Below, piece by piece: positions 3,696 through 50,054 of a stretch of DNA of 64,000 nucleotides (position 1 is its first letter; every line of letters starts with the position of its first letter). Source of the stretch: Candidatus Nomurabacteria bacterium. Lineage in GTDB: Bacteria; Patescibacteriota; Minisyncoccia; Phycocordibacterales; SBAW01. The notes beneath the pieces were generated by a model that was not told the origin of the DNA, made no database searches, and saw only the letters and a program-made list of their open reading frames with translations. Where the stretch lies: contig CALREW010000001.1 of assembly GCA_943356415.1 (NCBI GenBank), positions 80,528 to 144,527 on the forward strand, given 5' to 3'. The translations under genes were made by a program, and so were the position numbers.

Positions 3696-4019
3696 CTAGA
3701 AGTCCTCTTTCGTAGAATCGGTAGTTATCATTTCACCCTTTTCTATATCTCGCAGTGCGATGTCGCAATGATGCTCAAAATCTTGAATCGTATTGGGAGT
3801 ACTTGAATGGTTCGTATAGCGGTCCGGTTCGCCGTAGAGATATATACGCCCACTTCGTGTATGTGTAGAATCTCTGTCCTCTGGTGAGAGCGAAGCAAAT
3901 TCCTCGGCAGATATCACTCGGATGTTGTATTGCTTGATAACCTCACCTTTCTTGAATGAGCGACCCGCATACACGCCTTTTCCGTGCAGATTTCCCTTCC
4001 CGATAAAAACATCACTCAT
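3696..4019 (-). CDS. Small SET-domain protein (putative lysine methyltransferase)
   Basis: GKGVYA...KGEVI core and an NHSSTPNT motif, which is a variant of the SET NHSCxPN motif. ~107 aa, like bacterial mini-SET proteins. Confidence 0.55.
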   Translation of the reverse strand: MSDVFIGKGNLHGKGVYAGRSFKKGEVIKQYNIRVISAEEFASLSPEDRDSTHTRSGRIYLYGEPDRYTNHSSTPNTIQDFEHHCDIALRDIEKGEMITTDSTKEDF

Positions 4020-4092
4020 GGTGGACCCAGGGGGAGTCGAACCCCCGCCTCTGCAATGCGAATGCAGCGTTTTACCACTTAACTATGGGCCC
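4019..4092 (-). tRNA. tRNA-Ala (anticodon CGC)
   Basis: The reverse complement folds as a cloverleaf with a G3:U70 acceptor pair and anticodon loop UUCGCAU. CCA is encoded. An antisense spurious ORF overlaps it. Confidence 0.8.
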
Positions 4093-4108
4093 TCGTGCAA
4101 AATCTGTG

Positions 4109-4179
4109 TCGGGGTGCCGAGAATCGAACTCGGGTTTTACGCACCCGAAGCGTACATAATACCACTATATCACACCCCG
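4109..4179 (-). tRNA. tRNA-Pro (anticodon CGG)
   Basis: Reverse complement has acceptor CGGGGUG/CACCCCG, anticodon stem-loop UACGC-UUCGGGU-GCGUA and a T-arm with GTTCGATTC. The D-arm is imperfect. Confidence 0.6.
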
Positions 4180-4227
4180 ACACAGATTTCGACGATTGTA
4201 AAGTTACGTCCTCCGCAACAGCGCGGG

Positions 4228-4300
4228 TGGACGGTACAGGACTCGAACCTGTGACCTCTCCCGTGTGAAGGGAATGCTCTACCAACTGAGCTAACCGTCC
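4228..4300 (-). tRNA. tRNA-Val (anticodon CAC)
   Basis: Reverse complement GGACGGTTAGCTCAGTTGGTAGAGC...TTCACAC...GGTTCGAGTCC; anticodon loop UUCACAC. Confidence 0.8.
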
Positions 4301-4406
4301 CGGTTTTGAGCTCAAGAATAGTACCTTATTTTAAACGGGTTTTAAATACGGACGACAAAGTTTAATCGGTGTGTTTCAATTGCGAAGGCAGACAGGGAGG
4401 GACCGT

Positions 4407-4529
4407 ATGCGCGATTTCCAATTGCGCTTAGCCGTTTGGTGGCATCAGCAAAAAGGAGGGTTCCTGATCATCGCGGTGATCCTCGCCTTTCTCTCGCTGA
4501 AAGTCATTCTTCCACCGCGAGGCGAATAG
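4407..4529 (+). CDS. Possible 40-aa single-TM peptide (MRDFQLRLAVWWHQQKGGFLIIAVILAFLSLKVILPPRGE)
   Basis: Short ORF below the track cutoff. It is followed by two GC hairpins (4515-4535 and 4536-4565). No homology support. Confidence 0.2.
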   Translation: MRDFQLRLAVWWHQQKGGFLIIAVILAFLSLKVILPPRGE

Positions 4530-4610
4530 CCTCGCGACAAGCCCCGGCGGTTGCCGGGACTTGTCTTGTCTAGACCTCTATCTTTTTACGCGGTATAGTG
4601 CCAACCGTAA

Positions 4611-4686
4611 CGGGCCCTTAGCTTAGTTGGTAGAGCGCCTCATTTGCAATGAGGAGGTCACCGGTTCGAATCCGGTAGGGTCCACC
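4611..4686 (+). tRNA. tRNA-Ala (anticodon TGC)
   Basis: GGGCCCTTAGCTTAGTTGGTAGAGC...TTTGCAA...GGTTCGAATCC...AGGGTCCACCA. G3:U70 is present and CCA is encoded. Confidence 0.9.
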
Positions 4687-6190
4687 AAATTTGATTTGCA
4701 TCAGAATTGACCGCGCCCGCGCCAGAGGCGCGGGCTTGGGCTGGCATTTCCGCCAAGAAATTCCAAGGGGTTTTGAATTCCGCCAAAAGCATTCCCGCCG
4801 CGAGGCGGCGGTTCGAGCCGATGGAAACAAGAAAATCTTTCATCCCCGAAAGATTTTCTTGTTTCGAGAGATTTTCGGCTTGGTTGGCTTCAATAATCCA
4901 GTTTCGCATGAGTTCGAGCCAATGATTACCTTTTCGCTCAAAATCACTCAATTTCTCCTCCAGTGTCTTTTTTTCCGACATTAAAATATTCTTTTTCTCC
5001 TGATACTCGGTAAGTTCCAATGCCTCGCCTAAATATGCGTCTGTAAGTCGCTCTAGTCGCATTTTAATGGCGGAAATAGTATCGCGGAGATTTTGAGCGA
5101 AAAGGTCAGACGAATGGCGGGATTCCACTTGCTCGCTTTCAAGACGAGCAATATATTTGTCCCGCCATTCGTCCGGCAAAGAAACTTTTTGACAAAGCGT
5201 TTTCACTTGCTCGGCTAGGGCTTCCTCACGCAAAAAGCGATTTTCAGTACACGCAATAGTTTTACTCTTGTGGGTGCAACGATAATATACGAACTTCAAA
5301 CCACTTTTCTTGATGTGTCGCTCGGCGGTTATTGCATATCCACAAACCCCACAAGTAGCAAAACCTAAAAACTGAAAATTCTTTGGTCCTCGCTTTTTGC
5401 GGGGTTTACCATTCGTGATACACGCCTCTTGGATTTGGTCAAAAAGTTTCTTTGAAATCATTGGCTTATGCGATCCGGCATGCACATCGCCACGATACTG
5501 AAAATGTCCGTAGTAAAAAGGATTAGTTAAAATATGCTCCACCGAGGCAAGGGCGAGGGGCTTGCCGGTCTTGCCAACCAAGCCGACAGAAAACATTTTG
5601 CGCTGAATGCCAGTGAGCGTGTATTGTCCTGTAGCAAAAGCCCCTAGACATTCTTTCACTTTCGCAAAGGTCTTTTTGTCCGGCTCAATCGTTCGCAAAC
5701 GAGGTTCGTTGAAATAGCCGAGAGGGGCTTTTGCCGATAATTCGCCACGGCGTATCTTTTGCCGTATACCGCGCAAAATGTTTTCTCGCAAATTATCGGT
5801 GTAATATTTTGCTTGACCGAACGCCACAGACAACATGAATTTACCCTGTGGCGTCGGCTCAAACCAAAATGTAGGGAATTTTAGCGTGGTGATTTTGCCA
5901 GTGTCTACTAAATAAATCACTCTGCCTCCGTCTATCGAGTTGCGCGCCAATCTATCGGGATTCCACGCTAAAATTCCCTGCGCAGTGCCTTTTTCAATTT
6001 CGCCAAGCATTTCTTTAAAAATTTCACGACCAGGTTCTTTTGCAGTTTTACTCTCGTAAAATTCCTTAACAACAAAAAGAGAGTTTTGCTTGGCGAATTC
6101 CCGAAGCTCCGTCAGTTGTGCCTCAATGCTCAAAACTTGGCGTTCTTCATCTTCGCTCGATTTTCTACAGTAGATAAAATATTTCGTCAT
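4658..6190 (-). CDS. Large serine recombinase (resolvase catalytic domain, recombinase domain and zinc ribbon)
   Basis: N-terminus YCRKSSEDEERQVLSIEAQ carries the catalytic Ser, followed by ...DRLARN and a CGVCG...YYRC zinc ribbon with a coiled coil. The start is taken at MTKY (ATG at 6190), because the tracked N-terminal extension runs into repeat A'. The 3' end runs through repeat A into the tRNA 3' end. Confidence 0.85.
   Translation of the reverse strand: MTKYFIYCRKSSEDEERQVLSIEAQLTELREFAKQNSLFVVKEFYESKTAKEPGREIFKEMLGEIEKGTAQGILAWNPDRLARNSIDGGRVIYLVDTGKITTLKFPTFWFEPTPQGKFMLSVAFGQAKYYTDNLRENILRGIRQKIRRGELSAKAPLGYFNEPRLRTIEPDKKTFAKVKECLGAFATGQYTLTGIQRKMFSVGLVGKTGKPLALASVEHILTNPFYYGHFQYRGDVHAGSHKPMISKKLFDQIQEACITNGKPRKKRGPKNFQFLGFATCGVCGYAITAERHIKKSGLKFVYYRCTHKSKTIACTENRFLREEALAEQVKTLCQKVSLPDEWRDKYIARLESEQVESRHSSDLFAQNLRDTISAIKMRLERLTDAYLGEALELTEYQEKKNILMSEKKTLEEKLSDFERKGNHWLELMRNWIIEANQAENLSKQENLSGMKDFLVSIGSNRRLAAGMLLAEFKTPWNFLAEMPAQARASGAGAVNSDANQIWWTLPDSNR
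4681..4814. repeat. Inverted repeat A (134 bp), starting with the last 6 nt (CCACCA) of tRNA-Ala(TGC)
   Basis: A perfect reverse-complement copy lies at 6294-6427; I verified this base by base. The segment also encodes the C-terminal ~44 aa of the recombinase. Confidence 0.9.
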
Positions 6191-6293
6191 AGCTTCGGGA
6201 ATTAAATTGATAAAGGCACTGCACTTACACCGACAATTTGCAATCTCTCCGCATCGGCTCCTGTGCGAAGCACAGAACAAGCGTTAGCTTGTG

Positions 6294-6427
6294 GAACCGC
6301 CGCCTCGCGGCGGGAATGCTTTTGGCGGAATTCAAAACCCCTTGGAATTTCTTGGCGGAAATGCCAGCCCAAGCCCGCGCCTCTGGCGCGGGCGCGGTCA
6401 ATTCTGATGCAAATCAAATTTGGTGGT
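6294..6427. repeat. Inverted repeat A' (reverse complement of 4681-4814), ending in TGGTGG
   Basis: Perfect identity to the reverse complement of repeat A. Confidence 0.9.
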
Positions 6428-6678
6428 GTTTGTTTGAAAAAGTTAGAACTCATTTCGAGCAGAACCCCTGACTTCGCACGCGCGGAGCGCGTGATGGCTT
6501 GAAACTGCCTCGTACGCTCGGATTGCGTGGTGATGCGAACCAATGCGCCTCGGACACGCTCGCGGACTCGCGTGTGCAAAACCCAAAAATTTTCCTTCCT
6601 TAATTTCTGATTTTCGGCGGGGGGTGTGGGGGGAGCCGACAAAAAATGGAAAGGAAATTTTTGGTTTTGCTTCGCCGT
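6423..6678. repeat. Inverted repeat B (~255 bp), abutting repeat A' at the TGGTGG core
   Basis: The reverse complement recurs at 9105-9359. The spurious ORFs 6202..6816(-) and the 9083.. N-terminal extension share the identical peptide ...AKQNQKFPFHFLSAPPTPPAENQKLRKENFW... Confidence 0.9.
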
Positions 6679-6759
6679 ATTGAGAATACTTACAATTATT
6701 GCTATCATAGTATTGTACTCAAAGTATACCACAAATAATGATATCAAAGTATTGAAACT

Positions 6760-6957
6760 ATGGCAACGATTGGCGAAAATATAAAAAGAGTGCGTAACAA
6801 GCTTGGTTTGACCCAAGACGATTTAGTGAGGAAGTCCGGTGTTAAACATACTACTCTTACAAAAATTGAAAGTAATGTGGTGGTCAAACCAAGCGTGCAG
6901 ACCGTCGCCAAAATCGCCAAGTCGTTGGGCGTTCCTATGGAGGAATTAGTAAAATAA
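6760..6957 (+). CDS. XRE-family (Cro/CI-type) HTH transcriptional regulator
   Basis: 65 aa; IKRVRNKLGLTQDDLVRKSGVKHTTLTKIE is a classic HTH_3 pattern. First gene of the AT-rich cargo operon, with a repeated CAAAGTAT motif upstream. Confidence 0.75.
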   Translation: MATIGENIKRVRNKLGLTQDDLVRKSGVKHTTLTKIESNVVVKPSVQTVAKIAKSLGVPMEELVK

Positions 6958-6961
6958 TTTT

Positions 6962-7477
6962 ATGGCAATAAACACAGCACCACATATTCATAATCTTGTA
7001 ATCTGCGCGAATATTTTTGTCCGCAAAGACGGCAAGTATCTTTTACTAAAACGATCTGCACAAAAAAAGTATGCACCGAATGTAATTCATCCTATCGGCG
7101 GAAAAGTAGACCCTGATGAAAATCCTTATACTGGCGCACAACGCGAGCTTTTAGAAGAAGCCGGAATCAAAGTCAAAAATATGCGTTTAGAAGCTGTCAT
7201 CATGGAAATTAAGCCAGTAAAGGGTGAGGACGAAAATTGGTTGATTTTTCACTTTTCCGCCGATTACGAATCGGGCGAACTTATAACAACCAAAGAGGGA
7301 GAATTTGTTTATTTAAGTGCTGAAGAAATACCAAAGCAAGATTTGTTTCCATCTGTTCGCCCCATTATTCAACACATTCTCAATCCGAAAGATGGAACAG
7401 TATTTTTTACAGTTTCCTATGATGATAATGGAAAAGTTGTTGAGGAAACAAAAAGCGTGAATCTATGCGCTATATAA
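6962..7477 (+). CDS. Nudix hydrolase
   Basis: Nudix box GGKVDPDENPYTGAQRELLEEAGI (GX5EX7REUXEEXGU). Confidence 0.8.
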   Translation: MAINTAPHIHNLVICANIFVRKDGKYLLLKRSAQKKYAPNVIHPIGGKVDPDENPYTGAQRELLEEAGIKVKNMRLEAVIMEIKPVKGEDENWLIFHFSADYESGELITTKEGEFVYLSAEEIPKQDLFPSVRPIIQHILNPKDGTVFFTVSYDDNGKVVEETKSVNLCAI

Positions 7478-7481
7478 ATTT

Positions 7482-8033
7482 ATGGCAAATATTACTTTTA
7501 TAACAGGTAACCAAAAGAAAGCCGACTATCTAGCCAAGTATCTTGGTTTTCCTGTTGACCATGTAAAACTTGATTTAGACGAAATTCAATCACTTAATCT
7601 AAAAGAAATTGTTGAACATAAAGTCCGACAGGCTTATGAAAAAATAAAGAAGCCTGTCATTGTTGAGGATGTTTCGTTAGAGTTTGCCGCGCTTGGTAGG
7701 TTACCCGGCACTTTTATTAAATTTTTTGTTGACGAAGTACCATTTGAAAATATTTGTTCAATGATTGATGGAAAAACAAGAAAAGCAACCGCCCGATGTG
7801 TGTTTGGGTACTTTGATGGACAAGAATTGAAACTTTTTGAGGGTGGACTTGATGGTGAAATAGCCACAACGCCGTCAGGCGAAAATGGCTATGGCTGGGA
7901 TAAAATTTTTATCCCGCAAGGTTACACCGTAACGCGAGCTTCACTTGAAGAAAAAGACGACCAAAAAACTTATTTACAAATCAAGCCATTTGCAAAATTA
8001 AAAGAGTTTCTTGAATCAAAAATCAACAACTAA
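7482..8033 (+). CDS. Ham1/RdgB-family non-canonical purine NTP pyrophosphatase (ITPase-like)
   Basis: FITGNQKK at the N-terminus, VEDVSLEFAALGRLPG and GYGWDKIF, corresponding to the Ham1 motifs. Confidence 0.8.
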   Translation: MANITFITGNQKKADYLAKYLGFPVDHVKLDLDEIQSLNLKEIVEHKVRQAYEKIKKPVIVEDVSLEFAALGRLPGTFIKFFVDEVPFENICSMIDGKTRKATARCVFGYFDGQELKLFEGGLDGEIATTPSGENGYGWDKIFIPQGYTVTRASLEEKDDQKTYLQIKPFAKLKEFLESKINN

Positions 8034-9104: not shown

Positions 9105-9359
9105 CGGCGAAGCAAAACCAAAAATTTCCTTTCCATTTTTTGTCGGCTCCCCCCACACCCCCCGCCGAAAATCAGAAATTAAGGAAGGAAAATTTTTGGG
9201 TTTTGCACACGCGAGTCCGCGAGCGTGTCCGAGGCGCATTGGTTCGCATCACCACGCAATCCGAGCGTACGAGGCAGTTTCAAGCCATCACGCGCTCCGC
9301 GCGTGCGAAGTCAGGGGTTCTGCTCGAAATGAGTTCTAACTTTTTCAAACAAACACCAC
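9105..9359. repeat. Inverted repeat B' (reverse complement of 6423-6678), ending ...CAAACAAACACCAC
   Basis: Verified identity to the reverse complement of repeat B. Identity stops at the CCAC core. Confidence 0.9.
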
Positions 9360-9436
9360 AAACGACACAAAGATCCCGCCTGCGCGGGATTTTGTGCGAT
9401 TGTGGAAGGCGGAGAGTTTTACGCTATAGTTTTCTA

Positions 9437-17320: not shown

Positions 17321-17393
17321 AGGGCCGCTAGCTCACTTGGTAGAGCGCTTCCATGGCATGGAAGAGGTAACCGGTTCGATCCCGGTGCGGTCC
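17321..17393 (+). tRNA. tRNA-Ala (anticodon GGC)
   Basis: GGGCCGCTAGCTCACTTGGTAGAGCGCTTCCATGGCATGGAAG...GGTTCGATCCCGGTGCGGTCCA; G3:U70 is present. Confidence 0.85.
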
Positions 17394-17395
17394 AC

Positions 17396-17431
17396 AAAAA
17401 GCAAGACGCCCCTTCGGGGGCTTTTTGCTTT
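17396..17431. terminator. Bidirectional rho-independent terminator
   Basis: GCCCC-TTCG-GGGGC hairpin flanked by A-run and T-run (AAAAAGCAAGAC...TTTTTGCTTTC). It serves the atp/tRNA unit on the plus strand and the convergent amylase gene on the minus strand. Confidence 0.75.
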
Positions 17432-17546
17432 CTGTGACACGTAGCGAAACAACTGCTTGTTTCGCGGCCGAGGTGAGTGACGACGAGCTGAGAGCTGTGA
17501 CCCACAAATTTACTGGCCATGCAGATCAACCCCATTTTCGGCATGT

Positions 17547-19151
17547 CTACATGACGTTCCTCGCTTCCTTATTAGGACCCATCTCTTCAGGCACTTGATT
17601 TTTTGAGCACGCGCCGTCTTTACTTTTTTTCACTTGAAGCATGCGAAATCCATAGGGCGGAAGTTTAATAGTATAGACATCTTTTGTGATGGTAGGCGCC
17701 GGCTGCTTTGTGTAAAGATCATAAGGTATTTGACATAGCGAAAGACCAGACGCTTCTAATTGAACGGAAATATCTGTCTGAATTTTATTAAAATTATAAA
17801 TTAATAAGACAGTTTGTGATCCATCTTTACTCGTCCGCTGCATAGCATAGATTTTCGGGTCTGGGTTTGTCGGAACCCGAGTTCGGGAAGCGGAAGGAAG
17901 TAGTGCTTTGTTCGCATTAACAGTTCTTAGAACTTCATCCCAATTGTCGCGAATATCTTTAGGCCATTGTAAGTAGATGTCGTACTCCGGCGTGCCATAC
18001 AATATCCCGGCTCCAGCTAAGAGTGCGGCCTCTTGAACGCGCATGAGGGCTTCGCTCGGATATGGATCGGAACTAGCCCAAGCATGAGTCGTCTGTCCGT
18101 TACTGCGAGCGAAATCCGTTTTTTTAAATGCATCTTCTAAACTATCGGCATTGTCATCGTACAAAGTAATGCCAGTATAATCATTCATATTGTCGACGTC
18201 GGCAAAGTTGAACCAAGAGGTTAAACCAAATTTTAAATACGCATCTCCTTGATCACCTTGAGTGCTCTCAAATGTGATCCACTTGTCGTTAGGTGTATAG
18301 GTTTTTGCAAGATCTGCCATATGATATTTAAAAACTTCGCGCTCTTTTCCTTGGAAATTCATTGCGCTATGCCCATCGTCCCACATAAAACCATCCACGC
18401 CTGTGTCGAGCCAGTACTTGGTTAATTTTTCAATTTCTGCTCGTGCGCCAGGTTTATTAAAATCAAGTCCGGCTTCGCCCCACACGGACCAATAATAGGC
18501 TCCGGCCTCGGGGCTGTATTTCCATTGGGTCCGGTGTTCATAACCCTCGTCCGTTCGCGGAGTGTTTTTTGGAGGACCAACGGATGGCGACGGCAGGGGC
18601 GCTGTTGGATCTGTAGTCCATTGAAAAGTACTGACTTCGCGAGAAGTACGATCGCCTGTTTTGTACTGCAATGCAGCTATTTTGAAATAATCAGACTCTT
18701 TGTCAATAAATACATTTGAAAAATAAGTGACAACTTTCATATTTCTCTTATGAGCTTCCTCAACTAATTTTTTCCAGTCATCTATTGAGCCACTTTGTGG
18801 AGAGGTAGAGTAAAAATCAAGCGGATCGCAACCCAGCCATTTGTTTTTATCACCGTAATAAGGCGAATAAATTCCTACCACACGGAAACCACTGTCATTT
18901 AATTTGTCCAAGCTTTTTGTGATGTCGGCAAATGTATGATCATGTTGAGTGGTATAAATCCAAGCCACCCCATTTAAATCTTGAAAACTGTTTGGCTTTA
19001 CTTCGGCTTTTAGTGAAGCTGGGGAAGTAGAGTTTTGCGTAGCCGCTTTTTTCTGCGTGTAATAGGTCCCTACGGTAGCGAGTGCAGCTAAAAGACCGGC
19101 TGCCACAAAGAGACTGACAAACCCGAGCCCCTGTTTTTTATATAGGTGCAT
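17547..19151 (-). CDS. Glycoside hydrolase family 13 (alpha-amylase-like), N-terminally membrane-anchored
   Basis: GVDGFMWDDGHS matches GH13 region II (GFRxDxxxH). An N-terminal TM helix is present. The start is taken at MHLYKK (ATG at 19151). Confidence 0.65.
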   Translation of the reverse strand: MHLYKKQGLGFVSLFVAAGLLAALATVGTYYTQKKAATQNSTSPASLKAEVKPNSFQDLNGVAWIYTTQHDHTFADITKSLDKLNDSGFRVVGIYSPYYGDKNKWLGCDPLDFYSTSPQSGSIDDWKKLVEEAHKRNMKVVTYFSNVFIDKESDYFKIAALQYKTGDRTSREVSTFQWTTDPTAPLPSPSVGPPKNTPRTDEGYEHRTQWKYSPEAGAYYWSVWGEAGLDFNKPGARAEIEKLTKYWLDTGVDGFMWDDGHSAMNFQGKEREVFKYHMADLAKTYTPNDKWITFESTQGDQGDAYLKFGLTSWFNFADVDNMNDYTGITLYDDNADSLEDAFKKTDFARSNGQTTHAWASSDPYPSEALMRVQEAALLAGAGILYGTPEYDIYLQWPKDIRDNWDEVLRTVNANKALLPSASRTRVPTNPDPKIYAMQRTSKDGSQTVLLIYNFNKIQTDISVQLEASGLSLCQIPYDLYTKQPAPTITKDVYTIKLPPYGFRMLQVKKSKDGACSKNQVPEEMGPNKEARNVM

Positions 19152-19212
19152 AGGGTTAAATAGTTTATGCAATTGTAAGCGGCTCCTGGTTTTCCACAAA
19201 GTGAAAGCGGTG

Positions 19213-20361
19213 CTATTCACACCTCACTCCTAACTTTTCCTCAAACTCTCGGCACATTGCTTCTCGTTGTTGTGGAGCGTAAAACCCTTCTAAATATTCA
19301 AGTGCTGCACTCCCCGGGCAATCATCTTGTTTAAGTACTGGCATGACTGCACGTGCTTCGGTGCAAAATTGGAGCAAGGCGACGTGCTGTCTATTCGGAA
19401 TACCTAGTTTTGCCAGACCAACGCTGTACCCTTTAATACACAATGATGCGAGGGTGCCTGGCATATCTTCGCAGGCTTGTATGTCGCTTTGGTACGGAGA
19501 CCGCTCTCCAATATGGAGGTGAGCTGTGTCATAGCCGAATGACCATACAACTGCTTCGAGAGTAGTTGTACTAATGCCTTGAGGATATATATCGCTCAGC
19601 GCTTTTTGAAGCTCTGCAAAACTTGTAATGCCAGCAAGAGGGACTACTGCCCATTTATAATTACCAATGCACCGGGTGCGAATGTCGGGTTCAAATCCGT
19701 CGCATAGCGCAAGTGGGTTTGCGGTGCCTACGGACACTGCTTCACGCCCCAGTTTATTAAAAAGTCCTGAAAGGCAGTTGTTATAGTCTGCAGGATTCGG
19801 CGAAATATTTTTACATTGTGCGATGGCGTACGTGGCCATTTTTACTGGGTCATTTTGAAAATCTTTCTTAATGAAGGGGAGTGCGCGGCCAATACCTCGA
19901 AAACATTCAGCTTCTGCGTCGGGAACGAGCTGGCCAATATTTTTCCCCGTGGCAGCACAAAATTGCACTGCCGTTTCGATACTCCCTCTATCAAGTAAAA
20001 GTGCTCTCGGATATTCTTGGTAAAACCCATAGTTACAAACGACACTCTCTGGGCCGAGTGAAAGTTTGCTCGGGTCTTTTTGTTTTGCGTACACGGCAGC
20101 CCCTACTTCGAGTGCAAACTCATAACAGTGTGGTCGGAACCAGAGATTGTTCTTATACAATTCGTCAATTTTCTTAAATCCCGTTGCTGCGTCCTCACTA
20201 ATAATAGTGGTGCTTATTTCATAAAGATTTTTGTCGTATTGAGTTTTTTGTTGCTGCTCGCTCGGCGCATGTGGGAGTCGGGATTGTAGTACAACCGTAA
20301 TGCCTACGAAGGCGGTAACTGCAAGGAAAATAAGAACACGGGCAGTTACGGCACTTTTCAT
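19213..20361 (-). CDS. Hypothetical Cys-rich exported or membrane-anchored protein (382 aa)
   Basis: N-terminal signal/TM segment with many paired cysteines; no recognisable catalytic motif. Confidence 0.45.
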   Translation of the reverse strand: MKSAVTARVLIFLAVTAFVGITVVLQSRLPHAPSEQQQKTQYDKNLYEISTTIISEDAATGFKKIDELYKNNLWFRPHCYEFALEVGAAVYAKQKDPSKLSLGPESVVCNYGFYQEYPRALLLDRGSIETAVQFCAATGKNIGQLVPDAEAECFRGIGRALPFIKKDFQNDPVKMATYAIAQCKNISPNPADYNNCLSGLFNKLGREAVSVGTANPLALCDGFEPDIRTRCIGNYKWAVVPLAGITSFAELQKALSDIYPQGISTTTLEAVVWSFGYDTAHLHIGERSPYQSDIQACEDMPGTLASLCIKGYSVGLAKLGIPNRQHVALLQFCTEARAVMPVLKQDDCPGSAALEYLEGFYAPQQREAMCREFEEKLGVRCE

Positions 20362-20374
20362 TTGGCCATTCTAA

Positions 20375-20404
20375 CGAAAAAACCAGGACGTTGCTGTCCT
20401 GGTT
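20375..20404 (-). terminator. Hairpin terminator downstream of the TctC-like gene
   Basis: AACCAGGAC-GTTGCT-GTCCTGGTT with a T-run on the minus strand. Confidence 0.5.
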
Positions 20405-20432
20405 TCTCCTCCCGCCATTGCTGGCAGAAAAT

Positions 20433-21425
20433 CTATTCCGGCCGCACCTTGAAGCCCGCCTTGACGAGGCTGTCGTGGATTCGCTTCGCGTCGCTGTTGC
20501 GGAACGCAAGCGTCTCTACCGGATTCATGAAGACGGGTTCGGCGCCCATCTGGGTGTACTTCCGCCCCACCTCGCCTTCGAGTGCTTCCTTGATGAGGGC
20601 GGAGAGCTTGTCGACGACGGCCTGAGGCAAACCACGGGGTCCGCACAGTCCGCCCCACGTGGTCATCTCGTAGCCAGGTAACAGCTCGTCGAGTGCCGGA
20701 AGTTCCGGCAGTTGTCGGTTACGCTTCCTTGATGTGACGGCCAGGCCCTTCATCGTTCCTGCGCGAATATTCGTCACGGCCGGGCCGATGTTATCGAACA
20801 TGAGATCGGCGTGGCCACCAACGATGTCGCGCACCGCTTCGCCAGTCCCACCCTTGTAACCGACCGATGTGAAGGTAATGCCAGTCATCTGCTCGAAGAG
20901 AACGAGTGAGATGTGTGGAGTGGTGGCGATGCCGCCGTGTGCTGCCGTATATGGCTTGGGGTTCACCTTCGCGAGCGCAACGAGTTCTTCTACCGATGAA
21001 ACCGGCAGGTCACGGCGGGTCAGAAGAACGTTGCTTTGCAGATACAACGTGCCAATTGCCGCGAAGTCCTTCACAGAATCATACGGCGCAGGCGCTGCAA
21101 CATCGACTCCATCAGGAATGATCATCGTCGATGATGCATGAGTGACCGCGTTGTAGAGGCCGATGGTGTACCCATCTGGTGCAGCTTTTGCGAGTGCTGC
21201 AGTACCGATGGTACCGCTTGCGCCGAGGATGTTCTTGACCAGGAAGTTCTGTCCAGTGCGCTCGCTTGCGAACGCACAGAAAATCCTGATAAAGACGTCG
21301 GTGGGGCCGCCTGCCGAAAACGGGCAGATTACCTCGACTGGCCGATTAGGCCACGCGTCTTGCGCAAACGCAGGGACGCAGATCGCCCGAGGTGCAACTG
21401 CGGCGCTAAGGCTAACCGCAAGCAT
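20433..21425 (-). CDS. TctC/'Bug'-family tripartite tricarboxylate transporter periplasmic binding protein (orphan)
   Basis: Signal peptide followed by PNRPVEVICPFSAGGPTD...ILGASGTIGTAALAKAAPDGYTIGL. High GC (~62%). The start is taken at MLAVSL (ATG at 21425). Confidence 0.7.
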   Translation of the reverse strand: MLAVSLSAAVAPRAICVPAFAQDAWPNRPVEVICPFSAGGPTDVFIRIFCAFASERTGQNFLVKNILGASGTIGTAALAKAAPDGYTIGLYNAVTHASSTMIIPDGVDVAAPAPYDSVKDFAAIGTLYLQSNVLLTRRDLPVSSVEELVALAKVNPKPYTAAHGGIATTPHISLVLFEQMTGITFTSVGYKGGTGEAVRDIVGGHADLMFDNIGPAVTNIRAGTMKGLAVTSRKRNRQLPELPALDELLPGYEMTTWGGLCGPRGLPQAVVDKLSALIKEALEGEVGRKYTQMGAEPVFMNPVETLAFRNSDAKRIHDSLVKAGFKVRPE

Positions 21426-21672
21426 ACTGCGACGGGGAAGTACGAGTTTGAACACGAATTGAGCCCTCCTTGGGCGTGTTGGTTGTGTAGGGGAAGAAGG
21501 GGCAGTAGTGCCCGAACAGAGTTCCAAAAATGAGAGTACTGCATCGGAGCACAGAGTTCCATAGAATGCGAAACTCGTCGCGTCTGTGTATCGTTAGAAA
21601 GGAAGGAGCACCTTGAGACGTGCTTTTCACCACATTCTGCAATATAGGGCGCTGCCCAGAAAGGACGACCGC

Positions 21673-23499
21673 ATGTGCGGAATCATCGGAATCATCGGCA
21701 AGGCGCCGGTCACCCCGCTTCTTGTCGATGCGCTGAAGCGCCTCGAATACCGTGGCTATGACTCAGCGGGTGTTGCGACGCTCATCAACGGCCACATCGA
21801 TCGCCGACGCGCGGAAGGCAAGCTGGCCAATCTCGAGGCGAAGCTCGCTGGGGAACCACTGGCGGGCACTATCGGCATCGGTCACACGCGCTGGGCGACG
21901 CACGGGAAGCCGAGCGAACGCAACGCTCACCCGATCGCAACGGATCGTGTGGCAGTCGTTCACAACGGCATCATCGAGAACTTCCAGGAGCTCAAGGACG
22001 AGCTCGTGGCGGAAGGTCGTCGCTTCGACAGCGACACAGACACGGAAGTCGTCGCGCAACTGCTGACCTCGTACCTCGAGCGCCAGCTGTCGCCCGAGCA
22101 GGCGATGGAAAAAGCAATGGGACGCTTCAAGGGCGCATTTGCCCTCGTCGCTCTCTTTGCTGGACGACACGATATTCTCATCGGCGCTCGTCGTGGTTCG
22201 TCACTCGCTGTCGGCTACGGCGAAGGTGCAATGTACATCGGCACCGACGCCCTTGCACTCGCGCCGTTCACCGATCGCGTCGCGTACCTGGAGGAGGGTG
22301 ATTGGGCTGTTCTGCGCGATACTGATTGCCTCTTCTATCAAGGGGTGACGCAGGTCACACGGACCGCAAAGCATACCGGCCTCAGCTCGACACTCGTCGG
22401 CAAGGGGAATCACCCGCATTTCATGCTCAAGGAGATCTGTGAGCAGCCAACGGTGTTGGGTGACACGATGCAGCAATATCTCGACCCCAGTCGACGTGTG
22501 CGCCTGCCGGCGCTTTCGATCGACTGGAAGAACGTGAGTCGCTTGACCATGACTGCGTGCGGCACGGCGAACTTTGCCTGCCAGATCGCTAAGTACTGGT
22601 TCGAGAAACTGGCTCGGCTTCCCGTCGACACAGAGATTGCCTCCGAGATGGGCAGTCGCAAGCCGCCGCTTTCGAAAGGAAGCGTCTGCGTAGCCGTGTC
22701 GCAGTCTGGCGAGACCGCAGACACGATTCGCGCGATCAAGTACGCCAAGCAGGAAGGCTTGAAGGTCGTCTCCGTCGTGAACGTGCCGGAGAGTCAGATT
22801 GCCCGCCTGAGTGATGTGGTACTGCTGACGGTCGCTGGCCCTGAAATCGCGGTGGCGTCTACCAAGGCGTTCACCACGCAGTTGCTGGTATTACTGTCTG
22901 CAGCGATCGATGCAGGCCGCGCGCGAGGCACGCTGTCGGAGGAAGATGAGCGCGCGCTCACGCTTGCGCTTATCGAGCTGCCGAGGAAGGTGAGCGAGGT
23001 CATCGATGCACAGGAGCAGTTCAAGGCGCTCGGTGCACTCGAACTTCTCGCGAAGGCGAAGTGCGCGCTCTACCTGGGACGCGACTATCAGTATCTGATC
23101 GCCATGGAAGGGGCGCTCAAGCTGAAGGAGTTGACCTATATTTCGGCCGAAGGGTACGCCGGCGGCGAAATGAAGCATGGGCCTATTGCCCTGGTCGACT
23201 CGGACCTCCCGGTCTTCGTGCTGGCTCCTTCGGGCCCGTCGTTTGACGAGATGGTGTCGAACTTCGAGCAGGTGAAAGCGCGCGGTGGTCAGGTCATCCT
23301 CCTTACCGACGCGCGTGGTGCGAGCCGTCTCGCCAACGAAAGCACGGCGTGCTGCATCACTCTGCCCGACGTTCATCCGGACGTCGCGCCCATCCTCTAC
23401 GCCGTCGCAGTGCAGTTGATCGCGTATCATACGGCACTGTCGATGGGCAGAGATATCGATCAGCCTCGCAATCTGGCAAAGTCGGTGAGCGTCGCGTGA
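21673..23499 (+). CDS. glmS: Glutamine--fructose-6-phosphate aminotransferase
   Basis: N-terminal MCGIIGIIG (Cys2 nucleophile), two SIS domains and a C-terminal ...AKSVSVA. High GC. Confidence 0.9.
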   Translation: MCGIIGIIGKAPVTPLLVDALKRLEYRGYDSAGVATLINGHIDRRRAEGKLANLEAKLAGEPLAGTIGIGHTRWATHGKPSERNAHPIATDRVAVVHNGIIENFQELKDELVAEGRRFDSDTDTEVVAQLLTSYLERQLSPEQAMEKAMGRFKGAFALVALFAGRHDILIGARRGSSLAVGYGEGAMYIGTDALALAPFTDRVAYLEEGDWAVLRDTDCLFYQGVTQVTRTAKHTGLSSTLVGKGNHPHFMLKEICEQPTVLGDTMQQYLDPSRRVRLPALSIDWKNVSRLTMTACGTANFACQIAKYWFEKLARLPVDTEIASEMGSRKPPLSKGSVCVAVSQSGETADTIRAIKYAKQEGLKVVSVVNVPESQIARLSDVVLLTVAGPEIAVASTKAFTTQLLVLLSAAIDAGRARGTLSEEDERALTLALIELPRKVSEVIDAQEQFKALGALELLAKAKCALYLGRDYQYLIAMEGALKLKELTYISAEGYAGGEMKHGPIALVDSDLPVFVLAPSGPSFDEMVSNFEQVKARGGQVILLTDARGASRLANESTACCITLPDVHPDVAPILYAVAVQLIAYHTALSMGRDIDQPRNLAKSVSVA

Positions 23500-23558
23500 C
23501 GCTCATACGAGAAAATTTCTACCACCGCCCGCGCTTCGGCCCGGGCGGTGTACTGCGT

Positions 23559-26500
23559 CTAATGGGTAACTGGAGGTGCACTCATACGCTCGGCAAACAT
23601 TTTTTCCAGTCCTTTACCTGGTTTGCGGTGAAGCATGACGGGAATAAATACGAGCGTGAGAACCGTGCCGAAAATGAGACCGAACATAATCGTAAAGGCG
23701 AGTGGGGCCCACAACGCTGAAGCAAAGGAGAGCGGTATCATACCGACTGCCGTTGTTACCGTTGTAAGGAAGATAGGGCGCAAACGAGAAGAAGCGGCGC
23801 GCACGATAAAGTCATCGAGGCTTCGCGGGCCAGTACCGTCATCGGTGGAGCGTAGTGGCGAGATAAAGGAGTCGATAAGAATGATGGCGTGGTTGATAAT
23901 GACTCCGCCGAGTGCGATAAGACCAAGAAGCGAAGGGAAGGACAGTGGTTTGAAGGTAATAAGAAGTCCCAGCAACACTCCGGTTATAGAAAGTGGAACA
24001 ATCATTAAGGTATAACCTGCCAGACGGAATGAGTTGAACTCAAGCACAACCACTGCATACATGATCACGATACCTGCAATAAAGGCAAAAAACATTTCCA
24101 TAAACGACTGGTTTGTTTCTTCGTTCTCGCCCCCGGTAGACATGACAACTCCGTCAGGGAGCGCAAGGTCAGTCTTCGATTTCTCCATAAAGGCAGCAAG
24201 AGTGTCACGTGCATTTTCACCGCTTTTAAGCGTGGCAGAGACCGTCATGATGCGTTTGCGCCCTTCGTGGGCGATAGCAGATTGACCCTTAGCAAGTGTT
24301 GGATTCACGAGCGAGCCGAGCAGTACTTGGCCGTCTGCGGTTGCGATAGGTATTTGTTTGATTGCGTCAAACGTTGCTCGTGATGCGTCTTCTGCGCCAT
24401 ACGCGGTCGGATTGAGGTTGGCGCGCACCGTAACCGAAATGTCGTCACCAAAGGTGCGTATTTTGGTTGCTTCAACGCCGTAGATAGCGCTGCGCAGCGT
24501 TTGAGCAATGGCAACGGGTGTAAGTCCCAAGGAAGCCAACTTCGCGCGATCTGCAGTTAGCACGAACTCAGTGCCACCGGCGTCGCCAGAAGAGCGCACA
24601 TCAGCAACGCCTTCCATACTTCCTAGAATGTTTGCAGTTTTCTCTGACGCTTGGGCGAGGGCACCCAAATCATCACCGGTGAATTTAATAAGAATGGGAG
24701 CGCCCGTTGGCGGTCCACCGGCAGGTTCTCCGACGCGGATGGTTCCAATAGTCATGTCAGCCATTTGTGCACGCAAACGGTTTACAACATCGGTGCTGCG
24801 CTTCGTGTCTTTGTCGGAGAGAAGTATCAATGCGTTTGCAAATCTCGAACCAGAACTTGCCGCCCCACTAAACTGGTTGGTTGTACCAACCGTCGTAATG
24901 ATGGACTCAAATTCCTTGTGTTCATAGAGACGTTCTTCGACGGCACGCATCGCAAGGTCAGTTTGTGCGAGCGGGGTTCCTTCGGGCATTTCAAGGTCGA
25001 GATACACAAATTCAGCGCCACCTCCAGGGAAGAATTCAACTTTCACGAGACCAAATATTGGGAGTGCCAAGCTTGCGAGAAAGGCGAGCGCAATACCCCA
25101 AAGGAAGTACTTTTGGAGACGTGGTTGGGCAAACATATGGCGCAAAAAGCTTTCATATTTGCTGCGCGCAAGATTTGCGTAGCGATCTTGGAGTTCGCCG
25201 AGACGGCCTGCATGAGTTTCTTTAACGAATAGTGTTGCAAGAAGAGGCAAGATGCCGAGGGCAACAAACGTTGAGGCGATAAGCACCGCGATAATGGTGA
25301 ACGGAATCGACTTTATGAACTCTCCGGTAATCCCTGAGATAAAGAAGAGAGGAACGAATACGCCAACGGTGGTGGCGGTGCCTGCGATAAGCGGCCATGA
25401 AAACTCTCGAACGGTTTCGCGTGCTGCACGTAGCGGGTCGTGGTGGCGCGCCAAGCGGACGCTCATACCTTCAACAATCACAATGCCGGCGTCGACCAAA
25501 ATACCAATGGCAAGAATGAGAGAAAATAGCGATACGAAATTGATGGTGTTGCCTGAGTAATAGAGACCAACGAACGAGATAAGGAAGGAGAGGGGAACTG
25601 ATATGCCCGCGACGAGCGACTCACGCCAGCCGATGGTAATAAAGAGACACAATGCAACAAGAAGGACAGTCTCAATACCGACACGAACAAGTTCTCCAAG
25701 ATCTTTGTTTACTTGCTCACCGGCATCAAAAGAGACAACGACTGAACTTCCTGCAAGTACAGGCTTGCTCTGAAGTTCAGTGAGTTTTGTGCGCACTCCG
25801 TCTGCAACTTTGGTTACATCAGCACCAGCGCCTTTGAATATGTTTAAGGTGAGGGCTTGTTCTGACGGTGCGCCTGCTTTGGAGAGTCGAGTGAGGGTGG
25901 TTGCGGATTCTACACCGTCCGCAATAGTCGCAATGTCGCGAACGTAAATGATCGCGCCGGTGCGCGTCGGAATGCCGATGAGCCCAACATCTTTTGGATC
26001 AGTGAGATCGCCGGCAAAGCGAACGCTGTACTCAACATCATCGACGGTTATTTTGCCGGCAGGAAGTGCTGCATTTGCAGCACGAATAGCGTTACTGACA
26101 TCGCCAAGACTCAAGCCGTATCGAGCGAGGTCTTCCTTGCGGACAATAACCTGCGTCTCGCGCGGTCGAGCACCTTGTACTTCCACTCGGGAAACGCCAG
26201 GTATTGCCTGGAGTTCATCCTTGAGCGTATCGCCAAGAGCTGCAAACTGACCAAACGGTAAGTCGGCAGAGACTGAGACAATGAGGACTGGCTGGTCAGA
26301 AAAATTTACGTTGCTGACTGAAGGGTCCTTCGCTTCCTCAGGGAGTTCGGGTTTAACCTTATCAACTTCATCCTTTAGTTTGCGTATCGACGAGTCAATA
26401 TCTGCAGATGCAACGTACTGGACGGTTACTACCGATATGCCATCACCTGATGAGGATGTGATTTTGTCGACATCGGAAAGCGATGAGAGTTGCTTCTCTA

Positions 26501-26702
26501 TCTTGTTGGTCACCAACGATTCAACTTCGGTAGACGATGCCCCAGGAAGTGCCGTTACGACAATACCGATAGGGACTTCGACTTCAGGTGAAGACTCCTT
26601 ACGAATAACAATCGCTGAAGCGACGCCAGCGAGAACCAACCCTGCGATAAGCAGATAGGTAAATTGTCGACGTGAAAGGAAAAAATTCCAGAGAGGAAAC
26701 AT
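23559..26702 (-). CDS. RND-superfamily efflux permease (AcrB/HAE-like, 1047 aa)
   Basis: 12-TM architecture with two large periplasmic loops, and AcrB-like N- and C-terminal segments. Confidence 0.85.
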   Translation of the reverse strand: MFPLWNFFLSRRQFTYLLIAGLVLAGVASAIVIRKESSPEVEVPIGIVVTALPGASSTEVESLVTNKIEKQLSSLSDVDKITSSSGDGISVVTVQYVASADIDSSIRKLKDEVDKVKPELPEEAKDPSVSNVNFSDQPVLIVSVSADLPFGQFAALGDTLKDELQAIPGVSRVEVQGARPRETQVIVRKEDLARYGLSLGDVSNAIRAANAALPAGKITVDDVEYSVRFAGDLTDPKDVGLIGIPTRTGAIIYVRDIATIADGVESATTLTRLSKAGAPSEQALTLNIFKGAGADVTKVADGVRTKLTELQSKPVLAGSSVVVSFDAGEQVNKDLGELVRVGIETVLLVALCLFITIGWRESLVAGISVPLSFLISFVGLYYSGNTINFVSLFSLILAIGILVDAGIVIVEGMSVRLARHHDPLRAARETVREFSWPLIAGTATTVGVFVPLFFISGITGEFIKSIPFTIIAVLIASTFVALGILPLLATLFVKETHAGRLGELQDRYANLARSKYESFLRHMFAQPRLQKYFLWGIALAFLASLALPIFGLVKVEFFPGGGAEFVYLDLEMPEGTPLAQTDLAMRAVEERLYEHKEFESIITTVGTTNQFSGAASSGSRFANALILLSDKDTKRSTDVVNRLRAQMADMTIGTIRVGEPAGGPPTGAPILIKFTGDDLGALAQASEKTANILGSMEGVADVRSSGDAGGTEFVLTADRAKLASLGLTPVAIAQTLRSAIYGVEATKIRTFGDDISVTVRANLNPTAYGAEDASRATFDAIKQIPIATADGQVLLGSLVNPTLAKGQSAIAHEGRKRIMTVSATLKSGENARDTLAAFMEKSKTDLALPDGVVMSTGGENEETNQSFMEMFFAFIAGIVIMYAVVVLEFNSFRLAGYTLMIVPLSITGVLLGLLITFKPLSFPSLLGLIALGGVIINHAIILIDSFISPLRSTDDGTGPRSLDDFIVRAASSRLRPIFLTTVTTAVGMIPLSFASALWAPLAFTIMFGLIFGTVLTLVFIPVMLHRKPGKGLEKMFAERMSAPPVTH

Positions 26703-26706
26703 GACG

Positions 26707-28377
26707 TTATTTAACGGTTACCTGCTCGCCACTCTTTAAGCCACGCGCATCGGTGACTATGTTCATGTCGGTAGAGAGTCCAGACGTAATGACAACGCGG
26801 TCTCCGAGAAGTGTGCCGAGAACGACTGGGTGTGCAAGAAGGGCACCAGTTTCTTCAACGGTAAATACGACCGTTGCGTCGGTGCCGATTTTGAGTGCGG
26901 AAAGCGGGATGGCGATGGGGCCGGACGTAGTCACTTTGCTCTCGCGTTTTAGCTCCACCGTCACCGCAGCACCGTTTATAAGCGGGGTGGTGTCAGGTAG
27001 GCCGATGCGGACTTCAAGTTTTTTGGTCGACGGGTCAATGGCTGGCGCGATACGAGTTATCACTCCTTTGTAGGTTGCGCCGTCTGGACCTTGAACGCTT
27101 GTCTCACTGCCGGCAGACAATTCCGTTGCGTCGCCCTCAGTGACGTATGCCACGACTTCGAGCGCTTTGTTGTTGGCAATGGTTGCGGCAGGAGAGAGTG
27201 CAGCGACAAAATCACCCTGCGTAAGAGGAAGCGAGTTAATGGTTCCGGAGATGGGAGCGCGAACAATGGTTTTTTCAAGATTTGCACGTGCCGCGGCAAG
27301 AGAGCCTTGTGCCTGCTTGAGTGTTGCTTGCGCAGAAGCAATATCAGATTCATCTCCAACAACGCCTTGCTCGAGACTCTTGCGAGACACTTCAACTGCT
27401 GAAGCCTTGCTTGAGAGAAGATCCCGAGCGGCTGAAATGGCCGCAAGCGCCGCATTCACGTTGGTTCGCGCTGTATTTGCGTCAGACTTATACGACGCAA
27501 TACTTGTTTCTGAAATGTTTTGGTTAGTGATAGCGCGGTTGAGTGCGAGGATAAGTCGGTCGAGGAAATTGCGCACGTCACGCAACTCCGTTTCGGTACG
27601 CGCCAACTCTGCCTCAAGATCGTTTGAAGCGGAAAGCGTGCTCGAAAGGTTTGCCTCTCGCTTAAGTGTGGCGCCAAGACTTACGCGCGCACTAGCTGCG
27701 TCGTTAGCTGCTTGTGAGTCGGTCGACTGAACGAGGAGAGACGGCGAACTGGTATCTGGGTTATTGAACATTGGGTCCGTTTTGCGACGAAGGGTTTCGT
27801 CCACAGTCGCGTATGAGGAGAGCAGCGTATTTACTGCTGCAGTACGTGCCGCCGCGAGGGATGTTTCTGCGCTCGCCACACCAGACTCAAGTATCGCTAC
27901 TTGTTCGTCGCGCGCACCGCGTGTGACTTTGTTTAGCTGTGCACGCGCGCCGTCTGCAACGCCTTCGCTTTGGAGTACTGCCGCACGCTCGCGCGCGTTA
28001 TCCATCTCAGCGATGATTTCACCTGCGCGGATCGAATCGCCAAGTTGCTTGTAGAGGCGCACTATTTCACCAGATGACTGGGTTCGTACATCTGCCTCTG
28101 ACTGCGACGTAACAATGCCAACCACTGGCAAGAGCGAAGCGACGCCTGCAAGTTCACCGACCGAGCGTACCGACACGGTACGAGGGCCTTGTTCAGTGAG
28201 AGGGGTTTCGGTGGGACCGCCGCGCACAATAAGCGTACCTAAAATGCCAATGAGGATTCCGGCGACTGCAGAAAGCTTCCACCATCCGACACGTTTGCCA
28301 AAACGCTTAAACCACGAGTACGCGTCGTGTCGGAAAAAGCGGAGCATTGAACGAAGGGTGTTGGTAAACGAAGCCAT
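26707..28377 (-). CDS. Efflux periplasmic adaptor (HlyD/membrane-fusion-protein family) with a very long coiled coil
   Basis: N-terminal TM, biotinyl/lipoyl-like half-motifs (GEIVRLYKQLGDSIRAGEIIAEMD ... IVRAPISGTI) and a ~250-aa Ala-rich helical hairpin. Confidence 0.7.
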   Translation of the reverse strand: MASFTNTLRSMLRFFRHDAYSWFKRFGKRVGWWKLSAVAGILIGILGTLIVRGGPTETPLTEQGPRTVSVRSVGELAGVASLLPVVGIVTSQSEADVRTQSSGEIVRLYKQLGDSIRAGEIIAEMDNARERAAVLQSEGVADGARAQLNKVTRGARDEQVAILESGVASAETSLAAARTAAVNTLLSSYATVDETLRRKTDPMFNNPDTSSPSLLVQSTDSQAANDAASARVSLGATLKREANLSSTLSASNDLEAELARTETELRDVRNFLDRLILALNRAITNQNISETSIASYKSDANTARTNVNAALAAISAARDLLSSKASAVEVSRKSLEQGVVGDESDIASAQATLKQAQGSLAAARANLEKTIVRAPISGTINSLPLTQGDFVAALSPAATIANNKALEVVAYVTEGDATELSAGSETSVQGPDGATYKGVITRIAPAIDPSTKKLEVRIGLPDTTPLINGAAVTVELKRESKVTTSGPIAIPLSALKIGTDATVVFTVEETGALLAHPVVLGTLLGDRVVITSGLSTDMNIVTDARGLKSGEQVTVK

Positions 28378-49392: not shown

Positions 49393-49512
49393 CTAAGTGC
49401 AACAGCCCGAGCCGAGGCGCCTATACAAAGGCATTAAAATATCGGCACTGTACGGCCTAGCGAGCCGCATAGAAAAGAAGGGCCCCGCTAATGCAAGCGC
49501 ATAGGGGTTTCA

Positions 49513-50040: not shown

Positions 50041-50054
50041 TTGCCCAGCAGCCC

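Follow-up and report, generated by a model that had tools for sequence, protein, structure and literature searches.

Probable displacement in situ of a native glmS by an alphaproteobacterial homologue, next to a divergent tctC, in a genome of the Patescibacteria

The concept of xenologous gene displacement in situ reportedly goes back to the 'mosaic operons' of Omelchenko et al. in 2003. PMC1274311 and PMC2783167 both use this term, and it is documented that Paceibacteria acquire genes across phyla, Pseudomonadota included, with effects on their metabolic capacity (PMC12455944, mSystems 2025). Among the Bug/TctC solute-binding proteins, orphans are the rule (PMC5812351), and large expansions of TTT binding proteins have been documented in alphaproteobacteria too (PMC5994714). 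Here we describe a foreign two-gene block, made up of glmS and tctC, in a 64-kb stretch of contig CALREW010000001.1. This whole stretch is called the window, and the searches for gene remnants, TctA/TctB and repeats were confined to it. The gene order of relatives suggests that the foreign glmS has quite probably replaced the native gene where it stood, that is, by xenologous displacement in situ. As a type of event, this is textbook horizontal transfer with gene displacement and implies no new mechanism.

The genes around the block identify the host. The AtpD encoded in the flank shows 84-89% identity to proteins that carry the names Candidatus Adlerbacteria, Kaiserbacteria, Paceibacterota or Patescibacteria, and DUF5671 and related families are present among the block's neighbours, indicating a member of the Paceibacteria class of the Patescibacteria (Candidate Phyla Radiation, CPR). 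By these similarities the host lies near Adlerbacteria and Kaiserbacteria. The earlier note, made from the letters alone, had taken the genome for a small, monoderm-like one, in agreement with flank genes that are those of Patescibacteria.

The GlmS of the block is intact, as had been claimed: it starts with MCGIIG at 21673 and carries GATase_6/7 followed by two SIS domains (Pfam). It scores 701 bits against TIGR01135 (equivalog cut-off 418) and 729.6 against NF001484 (cut-off 381). In the alignment to 4amv, KLKE, KHGP, LAKSV and SQSGETADT, with the SQSGET phosphate-binding loop, are kept, and so is the catalytic set, namely the Cys nucleophile right after the Met and the equivalents of E. coli E488, H504 and K603. 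When the protein was searched against 5.8 billion proteins, the best 120 matches, with the same species set aside, were 70-72% identical and, where named, came from Reyranella, Enhydrobacter or 'Alphaproteobacteria bacterium'; judged by these best 120, the foreign GlmS type was seen only in this species-level lineage. Similarly, the best 80 loci in a GTDB scan of 185,579 species genomes (one genome per species) were all alphaproteobacterial, with 66-72% identity in Reyranella, Enhydrobacter and Vineibacter and at most 62% in the others. In a neighbour-joining (NJ) tree, the window GlmS grouped with the Reyranella type in 100/100 bootstraps, the Reyranella type formed a group without it in 99/100, and the window protein stood on a long branch. 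At the nucleotide level, an Enhydrobacter chromosome matched with 71% identity over a stretch that starts about 10 nt ahead of the ATG of glmS and ends at the stop codon. These relationships place the donor as an alphaproteobacterium that is related to the sampled Reyranella/Enhydrobacter clade yet outside it. Horizontal acquisition from a high-GC proteobacterium, one of the two origins that the earlier note had considered, is thus borne out by database search, while its 'Burkholderiales-type' label has to be given up, as the best non-self matches of both block proteins are Alphaproteobacteria (Reyranella/Enhydrobacter/Vineibacter). Close relatives of the host are not the best hits: GlmS is 72% identical to the Reyranella group versus 42% to the relatives.

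We compared the locus with those of two relatives, L002 (GCA_964829305.1) and L007 (GCA_964348815.1), using L013/L014 and L015 as outgroups. For AtpA, AtpG and subunit a, the window resembles L002 and L007 more closely than it does the outgroups L013 and L015. In both relatives, the atp operon is followed by tRNA-Ala(GGC), variable genes, glmS on the plus strand and then a convergent acrB, the same tRNA standing after atpC as in the window; MFP and marR after acrB were observed in L007 only, the L002 locus stopping within acrB. The window keeps this order, with AcrB 53-65% and the membrane-fusion protein (MFP) 57% identical to the orthologues in relatives, and its glmS stands in the slot of theirs and points the same way, at a distance of 59 nt from the stop codon of acrB. 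The glmS genes of the relatives are host-like in composition (GC 0.495 and 0.518; GC at third codon positions, GC3, 0.44 and 0.51), and their products share 57% identity with each other and 42-43% with the GlmS of the window. A search across the whole 64-kb window revealed no native glmS remnant. Judged by gene order, then, the foreign glmS occupies the native gene's slot and is probably not an addition, a point that goes beyond the earlier note.

The sequences around the gene differ as well. L002 (16535-16580) and L007 (11427-11472) share an upstream motif, CGTAACT ... GTTATATATC, 4-5 nt before the glmS ATG, which is missing in the window. Downstream of glmS, L002 has an AT-rich terminator and the L007 gene ends 1 nt from acrB, while the GC-rich hairpin of the window resembles the terminators found after Reyranella glmS. 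The relatives' motif is without a Shine-Dalgarno sequence and suggests a -10 box for a leaderless transcript. In the window, AAGGAAGGAG, a strong Shine-Dalgarno-like sequence within 21589-21672, precedes an in-frame TTG at 21613; gene callers chose the ATG at 21673. A start at the TTG seems incompatible with an N-terminal nucleophile because 20 extra residues would precede the catalytic Cys, unless they are removed. Rfam found no glmS ribozyme upstream of either the native or the foreign glmS.

The block is not confined to one assembly or to one strain. Contigs in the ENA assemblies ERZ27280317 and ERZ27280315 match the window at 100% identity, an identical GlmS is encoded together with the host AtpD on a 425,570-bp NCBI contig, and 17 Logan contigs carry a GlmS with one residue different, the version of a 98.5%-identical strain, with the same neighbours in all. 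A contig of SRR24750914 represents this different strain (L001), 98.5% identical across 16 kb. The synonymous divergence between the strains (pS) was 0.036 for tctC, 0.033 for glmS and 0.035 for both acrB and the amylase gene; since pS is equal in block and flanks, the block was present in the strains' common ancestor and has been inherited chromosomally. The transfer must be older than the split of the two strains, both of which carry the block, and more recent than the separation from L002 and L007, which keep a native glmS. A scan of JGI metagenomes with AcrB returned 13 loci, 43-53% identical and with glmS nearby in 0/13, which was of no help in dating the event. Likewise, the nearest named cluster of the L002 and L007 GlmS is a Bacteroidota metagenome-assembled genome (50-54%), a match from a biased sample of representatives that is uninformative on the type.

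Both genes are under purifying selection. Between the strains, glmS differs by 15 synonymous and 1 non-synonymous changes, a ratio of non-synonymous to synonymous divergence (pN/pS) of 0.02 (P = 7e-9 versus neutrality), and tctC by 9 synonymous and 5 non-synonymous changes (pN/pS 0.19, P = 0.002). Such strong purifying selection on glmS argues that the foreign enzyme works. In addition, the window encodes Ddl and YceG/MltG, which points to a peptidoglycan synthesis that needs the GlmS product. We infer from this that the foreign GlmS would be the cell's working enzyme. A second glmS is probably absent from the rest of the genome.

Composition also sets the block apart. GC content runs at 0.43-0.48 between 19.0 and 20.3 kb, at 0.58-0.65 from about 20.4 to 23.5 kb and at about 0.51 beyond; per gene it is 0.610 for glmS and 0.591 for tctC. 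The jump between two hairpins that had been noted earlier was seen as a sharp rise, its value of about 62% being slightly too high: we measured 0.597 for 20433-23499 versus 0.504 for the remaining window. Codon usage was rightly described as unlike that of the neighbours, GC3 being 0.67 in tctC and 0.73 in glmS versus about 0.45-0.55 in most other window genes, and the antisense open reading frame (ORF) at 22891..23430 exists. Reyranella-type genes, which are of the donor type, have a GC3 of 0.88-0.95. The block is therefore intermediate between donor type and host (about 0.5), and it is either partly ameliorated or from a donor of lower GC. It is an outlier without being unique in the window: 56-59 kb is higher in GC (0.606), 6-9 kb is much lower, and in the tetranucleotide comparison run across the window the strongest outlier was 6-9 kb.

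Both hairpins flanking the block are present. On the minus strand, the 71-nt spacer 20362-20432 folds with -32.8 kcal/mol (z = -5.5) and has the canonical form of a tctC terminator; the hairpin at 23523-23550 has a stem of 9+2 bp (-24.3 kcal/mol, z = -2.5) and is separated from the stop codon of acrB by about 10 nt. Neither was listed by a simple consensus terminator scan. The foreign DNA is limited on the left between 20362 and 20433 and on the right between 23550 and 23559. The possibility that the hairpins are the ends of an element was rejected: they are ordinary terminators of tctC and glmS, and flanking repeats were not found. Searches around the block for flanking repeats, att sites and target-site duplications gave nothing beyond chance, and Pfam recognised no integrase or transposase gene in the block or beside it. 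A mobile genomic island or transposon was rejected too, integrase, transposase and flanking repeats all being lacking; this includes Tn7-like elements, and Tn7 integrates downstream of glmS, whereas in the window glmS itself is foreign. The coordinates of the features are collected in Table 1.

Table 1. Features of the glmS-tctC block and of its surroundings (window coordinates)
Feature	Position	Strand	Basis and remarks
tRNA-Ala(GGC)	17322..17395	+	ARAGORN, Rfam; conserved left anchor of the variable region
Alpha-amylase-family gene and 382-aa gene without family match	17547..20361	-	Pfam; GC 0.43-0.46, GC3 0.40
tctC terminator hairpin	20375..20404	-	14-bp stem, then U6 tract; left edge of the GC shift
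tctC, Bug/TTT-family extracytoplasmic solute-binding protein	20433..21455	-	PF03401
Divergent tctC-glmS intergenic region	21456..21672	.	217 nt, GC 0.52
Shine-Dalgarno AGGAGG of tctC	21465..21470	-	9 nt upstream of GTG; read from sequence
glmS, glutamine--fructose-6-phosphate transaminase, 608 aa	21673..23499	+	TIGR01135
GC-rich hairpin with UUCG loop	23523..23550	.	Fold; between convergent glmS and acrB
acrB-type RND pump and membrane-fusion protein (MFP) genes	23559..28377	-	Pfam; host composition; conserved right anchor, marR beyond

The intergenic region between tctC and glmS must hold the promoters of both genes. When compared with donor glmU and with the upstream motif of the relatives' native glmS, it showed similarity to neither. 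An exact 11-nt direct repeat, ACAGAGTTCCA, occurs in it at 21516-21526 and 21551-21561; the copies are 35 nt apart, match at about 16/18 bases when extended and are both kept in the second strain. This repeat may be a candidate regulator-binding site.

The region in which the block lies is variable. It begins where the ATP synthase operon ends and reaches as far as glmS. The outgroups are without the cassette found here, and no two of the genomes compared have the same genes between the tRNA and glmS, which identifies the locus as a variable region. Between tRNA-Ala(GGC) and glmS, the window (17396-21672) carries the amylase gene, the 382-aa gene and tctC, L002 (12156-16580) about nine small ORFs and L007 (10720-11472) a 750-nt gap; this stretch is an insertion hotspot. 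The amylase and 382-aa genes have no match at this position in L002, L007, L013 or L015, and they form a separate variable segment that lies outside the high-GC block.

The two domains of the foreign GlmS have diverged to different degrees. Identity to the Reyranella type is 82% in the glutaminase domain versus 64% in the isomerase domain (residues 241-608, window 22393-23499), and a C-domain identity of at least 75% is seen in all alphaproteobacterial GlmS pairs whose N-domains are comparably similar. Comparison with 121 other GlmS sequences, native Patescibacteria types included, revealed seven substitutions at invariant columns (R327G, Y328S, G471D, H491S, K526E, T606S and E608A), all of them in the isomerase domain. 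They change EFRYR to EMGSR and the C-terminal tail KSVTVE to KSVSVA, both of which are invariant in the 121. A mosaic protein with another donor of the C-domain was tried and rejected, given that an HMMER search with the isomerase domain only, against 1.84 billion cluster representatives, reached 53-57% at best, not above the 64-66% of Reyranella. Native-derived ends of the gene or crossovers inside it were rejected as well: in sliding windows, identity is alphaproteobacterial throughout, and the 3' codons differ from those of donors by point changes only. The isomerase domain would thus either have evolved fast after the transfer or have been unusual already in the donor. Its decay is argued against by the current purifying selection.

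The minus-strand gene encodes a TctC/Bug protein, as the earlier note had recognised: the PF03401 match has an E value of 4e-43 (148.3 bits, gathering cut-off 27), and the motif GASGTIGTAALAKAAPDGYT is present. It matches the solved structures 5oei (AdpC), 2f5x (BugD), 6hke and 2dvz at E 1e-38 to 1e-43. The protein has 340 aa if translated from the GTG at 21455 and 330 aa from the ATG at 21425, the choice of gene callers. Judged by its Shine-Dalgarno spacing and N-terminus, the GTG is most likely the start; with it, the N-terminus MFKLVLPRRSMLAV...AFA, then QD, is regained, in line with the 'LPRRR' signal peptides of homologues. The aligned stretch is MFKLVLPRRSMLAVSLSAAVAPRAICVPAFA, then QD, and the export signal is predicted from this alignment. 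No canonical lipobox was found in the N-terminus. With the own species excluded, the best matches are 44-47% identical and come from Reyranella and Vineibacter; a variant from the same species is 98% identical, and everything else is at most 47% identical. Relative to homologues, the protein has a 7-residue insertion. Conservation was counted over ten TctC sequences, and 58 alignment columns, including the PDGYTIGL motif, were invariant in 10/10. No match to TctA or TctB was obtained among the window ORFs of at least 400 aa and the neighbours of the block, a family scan that left out some shorter ORFs.

Altogether, these observations are consistent with the following course of events. A foreign segment would have been taken up from an alphaproteobacterium and inserted by illegitimate recombination in the variable region downstream of tRNA-Ala(GGC). 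The native glmS may have been swapped in one step, or insertion may have come first and loss of the native copy later; its promoter motif and AT-rich terminator would have been replaced along with it. The divergent tctC may have arrived with glmS or just beside it. The foreign GlmS would since supply glucosamine-6-phosphate for UDP-GlcNAc and peptidoglycan, and TctC would be kept as an exported orphan protein that is predicted to bind carboxylates.

Several points weigh against this account. The slot argument depends on the two relatives L002 and L007; the contig of the closest other species, L006 (AtpD 97%), stops before the locus, and L013/L014 and L015 are without the glmS-RND-MFP-marR cassette at the site. 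Our view was restricted to 64 kb, and a native glmS or tctA/tctB could sit in another part of the genome. A further difficulty is the unusual divergence of the isomerase domain, with its seven changes at invariant columns, and another is the attachment of TctC: an exported, non-lipidated protein has no obvious way to stay attached to a host without an outer membrane. The nearest donor proteins are only 72% (GlmS) and 47% (TctC) identical, so that either the actual donor has yet to be sampled or the genes changed rapidly once transferred. Finally, tctC lies within 4 kb of glmS in 0/80 alphaproteobacterial loci, and glmU stands directly upstream of glmS, in the same orientation, in 59/71; for this reason a single-fragment origin of the pair is unproven. 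Either the two genes are neighbours in a donor that has not been sampled, or they were brought together at the time of uptake or later.

It is accordingly conceivable, though we lean against it, that tctC and glmS were acquired independently or as separate fragments joined at uptake. Besides the gene order of the sampled alphaproteobacteria, such an origin would agree with donor similarity that starts only just before the glmS ATG, with the somewhat different GC3 of the two genes and with the unrelated contexts, without glmS nearby, in which the closest TctC homologues are found. Remnants of donor glmU or of the downstream EF-hand gene were sought in the block, with chance-level matches only. 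Against two acquisitions, the genes are contiguous with a single 217-nt spacer, they share a donor group and they show equal divergence between the strains; moreover, the true donor being unsampled, its gene order is unavailable for comparison.

A second alternative holds that glmS alone matters and that tctC is a decaying, non-functional passenger, which we regard as unlikely. Patescibacteria lack a periplasm, which makes a periplasmic-type binding protein an odd possession. No TctA/TctB partner was matched in the ORFs scanned, pN/pS is about 10 times that of glmS, and the insertion and the low identity to any homologue would also fit a passenger. On the other hand, the ORF of 340 codons is intact, with its AGGAGG, a signal-peptide-like N-terminus and a terminator of its own, its pN/pS is significantly below 1, and the columns that are invariant across the ten sequences are retained. 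Moreover, members of this family are orphans as a rule (PMC5812351).

A broader reading takes the two genes together: the lineage lives or lived attached to Reyranella-like alphaproteobacteria, took its partner's glmS, remodelled the isomerase domain and reused TctC as a surface receptor for a host-derived carboxylate. We put this forward as a speculation that is rather improbable as a whole; if it is true, remodelling of the isomerase domain could change regulation or sensitivity to inhibitors.

Very unlikely, in our view, is an addition, in which the foreign glmS would be an extra copy and the native gene would lie elsewhere, moved away from acrB. It is true that only 64 kb of the genome were inspected and that glmS can be missing from this locus, as it is in the outgroups L013 and L015. 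In contrast, slot and orientation equal those of the native gene in two relatives, the window holds no native remnant, and the pN/pS of glmS is what one would expect if it were the only copy of an essential gene. Redundant housekeeping genes are seldom retained in the small genomes of Patescibacteria, which also speaks against an extra copy. An assembly chimera, that is, an alphaproteobacterial fragment misjoined into a Patescibacteria contig, could account for the sharp GC change at both edges and for the alphaproteobacterial affinity of both genes, but this second origin considered in the earlier note is dismissed as extremely improbable: host genes in conserved order flank a mere 3.1 kb of foreign DNA, the same junctions recur in the two ENA assemblies, the 425-kb NCBI contig, the 17 Logan contigs and two strains, with about 3.5% synonymous divergence inside the block as outside, and the divergence of GlmS (28%) and TctC (53%) from every known alphaproteobacterial protein argues that the block is not part of a co-occurring Reyranella genome.

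Other stretches of the window are also unusual. The 382-aa gene (19213-20361, minus strand), whose start codon stands 13 nt after the U-tract of the tctC terminator, encodes a Cys-rich exported protein and differs between the strains at 4.9% of nucleotides (pS 0.108, pN/pS 0.29) versus about 1% in its neighbours, which suggests allele exchange or diversifying selection. The most extreme composition of the window (GC 0.644, GC3 0.86) belongs to a 677-aa ORF on the plus strand (57061-59094) with an N-terminal membrane segment and a long coiled-coil-like C-terminal half, which matched neither Pfam nor NCBIfam; probably foreign as well, it lies in the 3-kb stretch of highest GC, 56-59 kb. At 49510-50070 (GC 0.69), ORFs of 175 aa (plus strand, GC3 0.85) and 186 aa (minus strand) overlap on both strands, neither with a family match. 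A further compositional outlier is a 150-aa EamA-like half-transporter at 46915-47367 (plus strand, GC3 0.79), with a weak Pfam match below the gathering score. The region 4019-8033, whose tetranucleotide usage departs most from the rest of the window, resembles an element that has integrated at a tRNA gene: a cluster of four tRNAs (Ala-CGC, Pro, Val and Ala-UGC) adjoins a large serine recombinase gene (4658-6280, minus strand), which is followed by NUDIX (6962-7477) and Ham1/ITPase (7482-8033) genes with GC 0.36-0.38 and GC3 0.28-0.30. Finally, a terminator-like hairpin element of about 55 nt, containing AAGATCCCGCCTGCGCGGGATTTTGTG, occurs at 9356-9414 in the window, 1395-1447 in L002 and 10716-10774 in L007, 91-92% identical; it lies directly 3' of tRNA-Ala genes in L002 and L007 and has no adjacent tRNA in the window.

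The locus thus offers a clean inter-phylum transfer into a CPR genome in which an essential cell-wall precursor gene would have been replaced rather than added, with both boundaries fixed within tens of bases and with selection data at the population level. Binning and annotation pipelines should not throw out such regions as contamination. Furthermore, the Reyranella-like donor clade is a lead on the organisms that this uncultured ultra-small bacterium meets or depends on. We found no paper linking Patescibacteria, glmS and transfer, and the main text of PMC12455944 does not mention glmS, tricarboxylate transporters or Alphaproteobacteria.

Compared with known systems, the locus resembles xenologous displacement in situ in that a housekeeping gene appears to be swapped for a distant orthologue while its neighbours stay native. 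Unlike in mosaic operons, the window glmS is monocistronic and convergent with its neighbour, the donor is from a different phylum, a second foreign gene adjoins, and the native promoter and terminator would have been replaced too. It shares inter-phylum acquisition by Paceibacteria with the cases of PMC12455944, and differs from them in that an existing essential gene seems to have been replaced and no new function gained. The TctC has, like the Bug/TctC orphans (Bordetella Bug; the Rhodoplanes expansion, PMC5994714; reviewed in PMC5812351), PF03401 and no adjacent tctA/tctB, and, like its homologues, a predicted signal peptide with an RR-containing n-region. In contrast to known members, it belongs to a patescibacterial cell without an outer membrane or a known expansion of the family; its nearest relatives are alphaproteobacterial and not Burkholderiales, and it has its 7-residue insertion and at most 47% identity to any known member. 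As for GlmS, it has both domains complete like the E. coli enzyme (4amv, 2j6h, 1jxa) and retains its N-terminal Cys and the catalytic residues of the isomerase, while seven isomerase-domain changes, including those in the EFRYR motif, H491S and the C-terminal tail, distinguish it from all 121 other GlmS compared.

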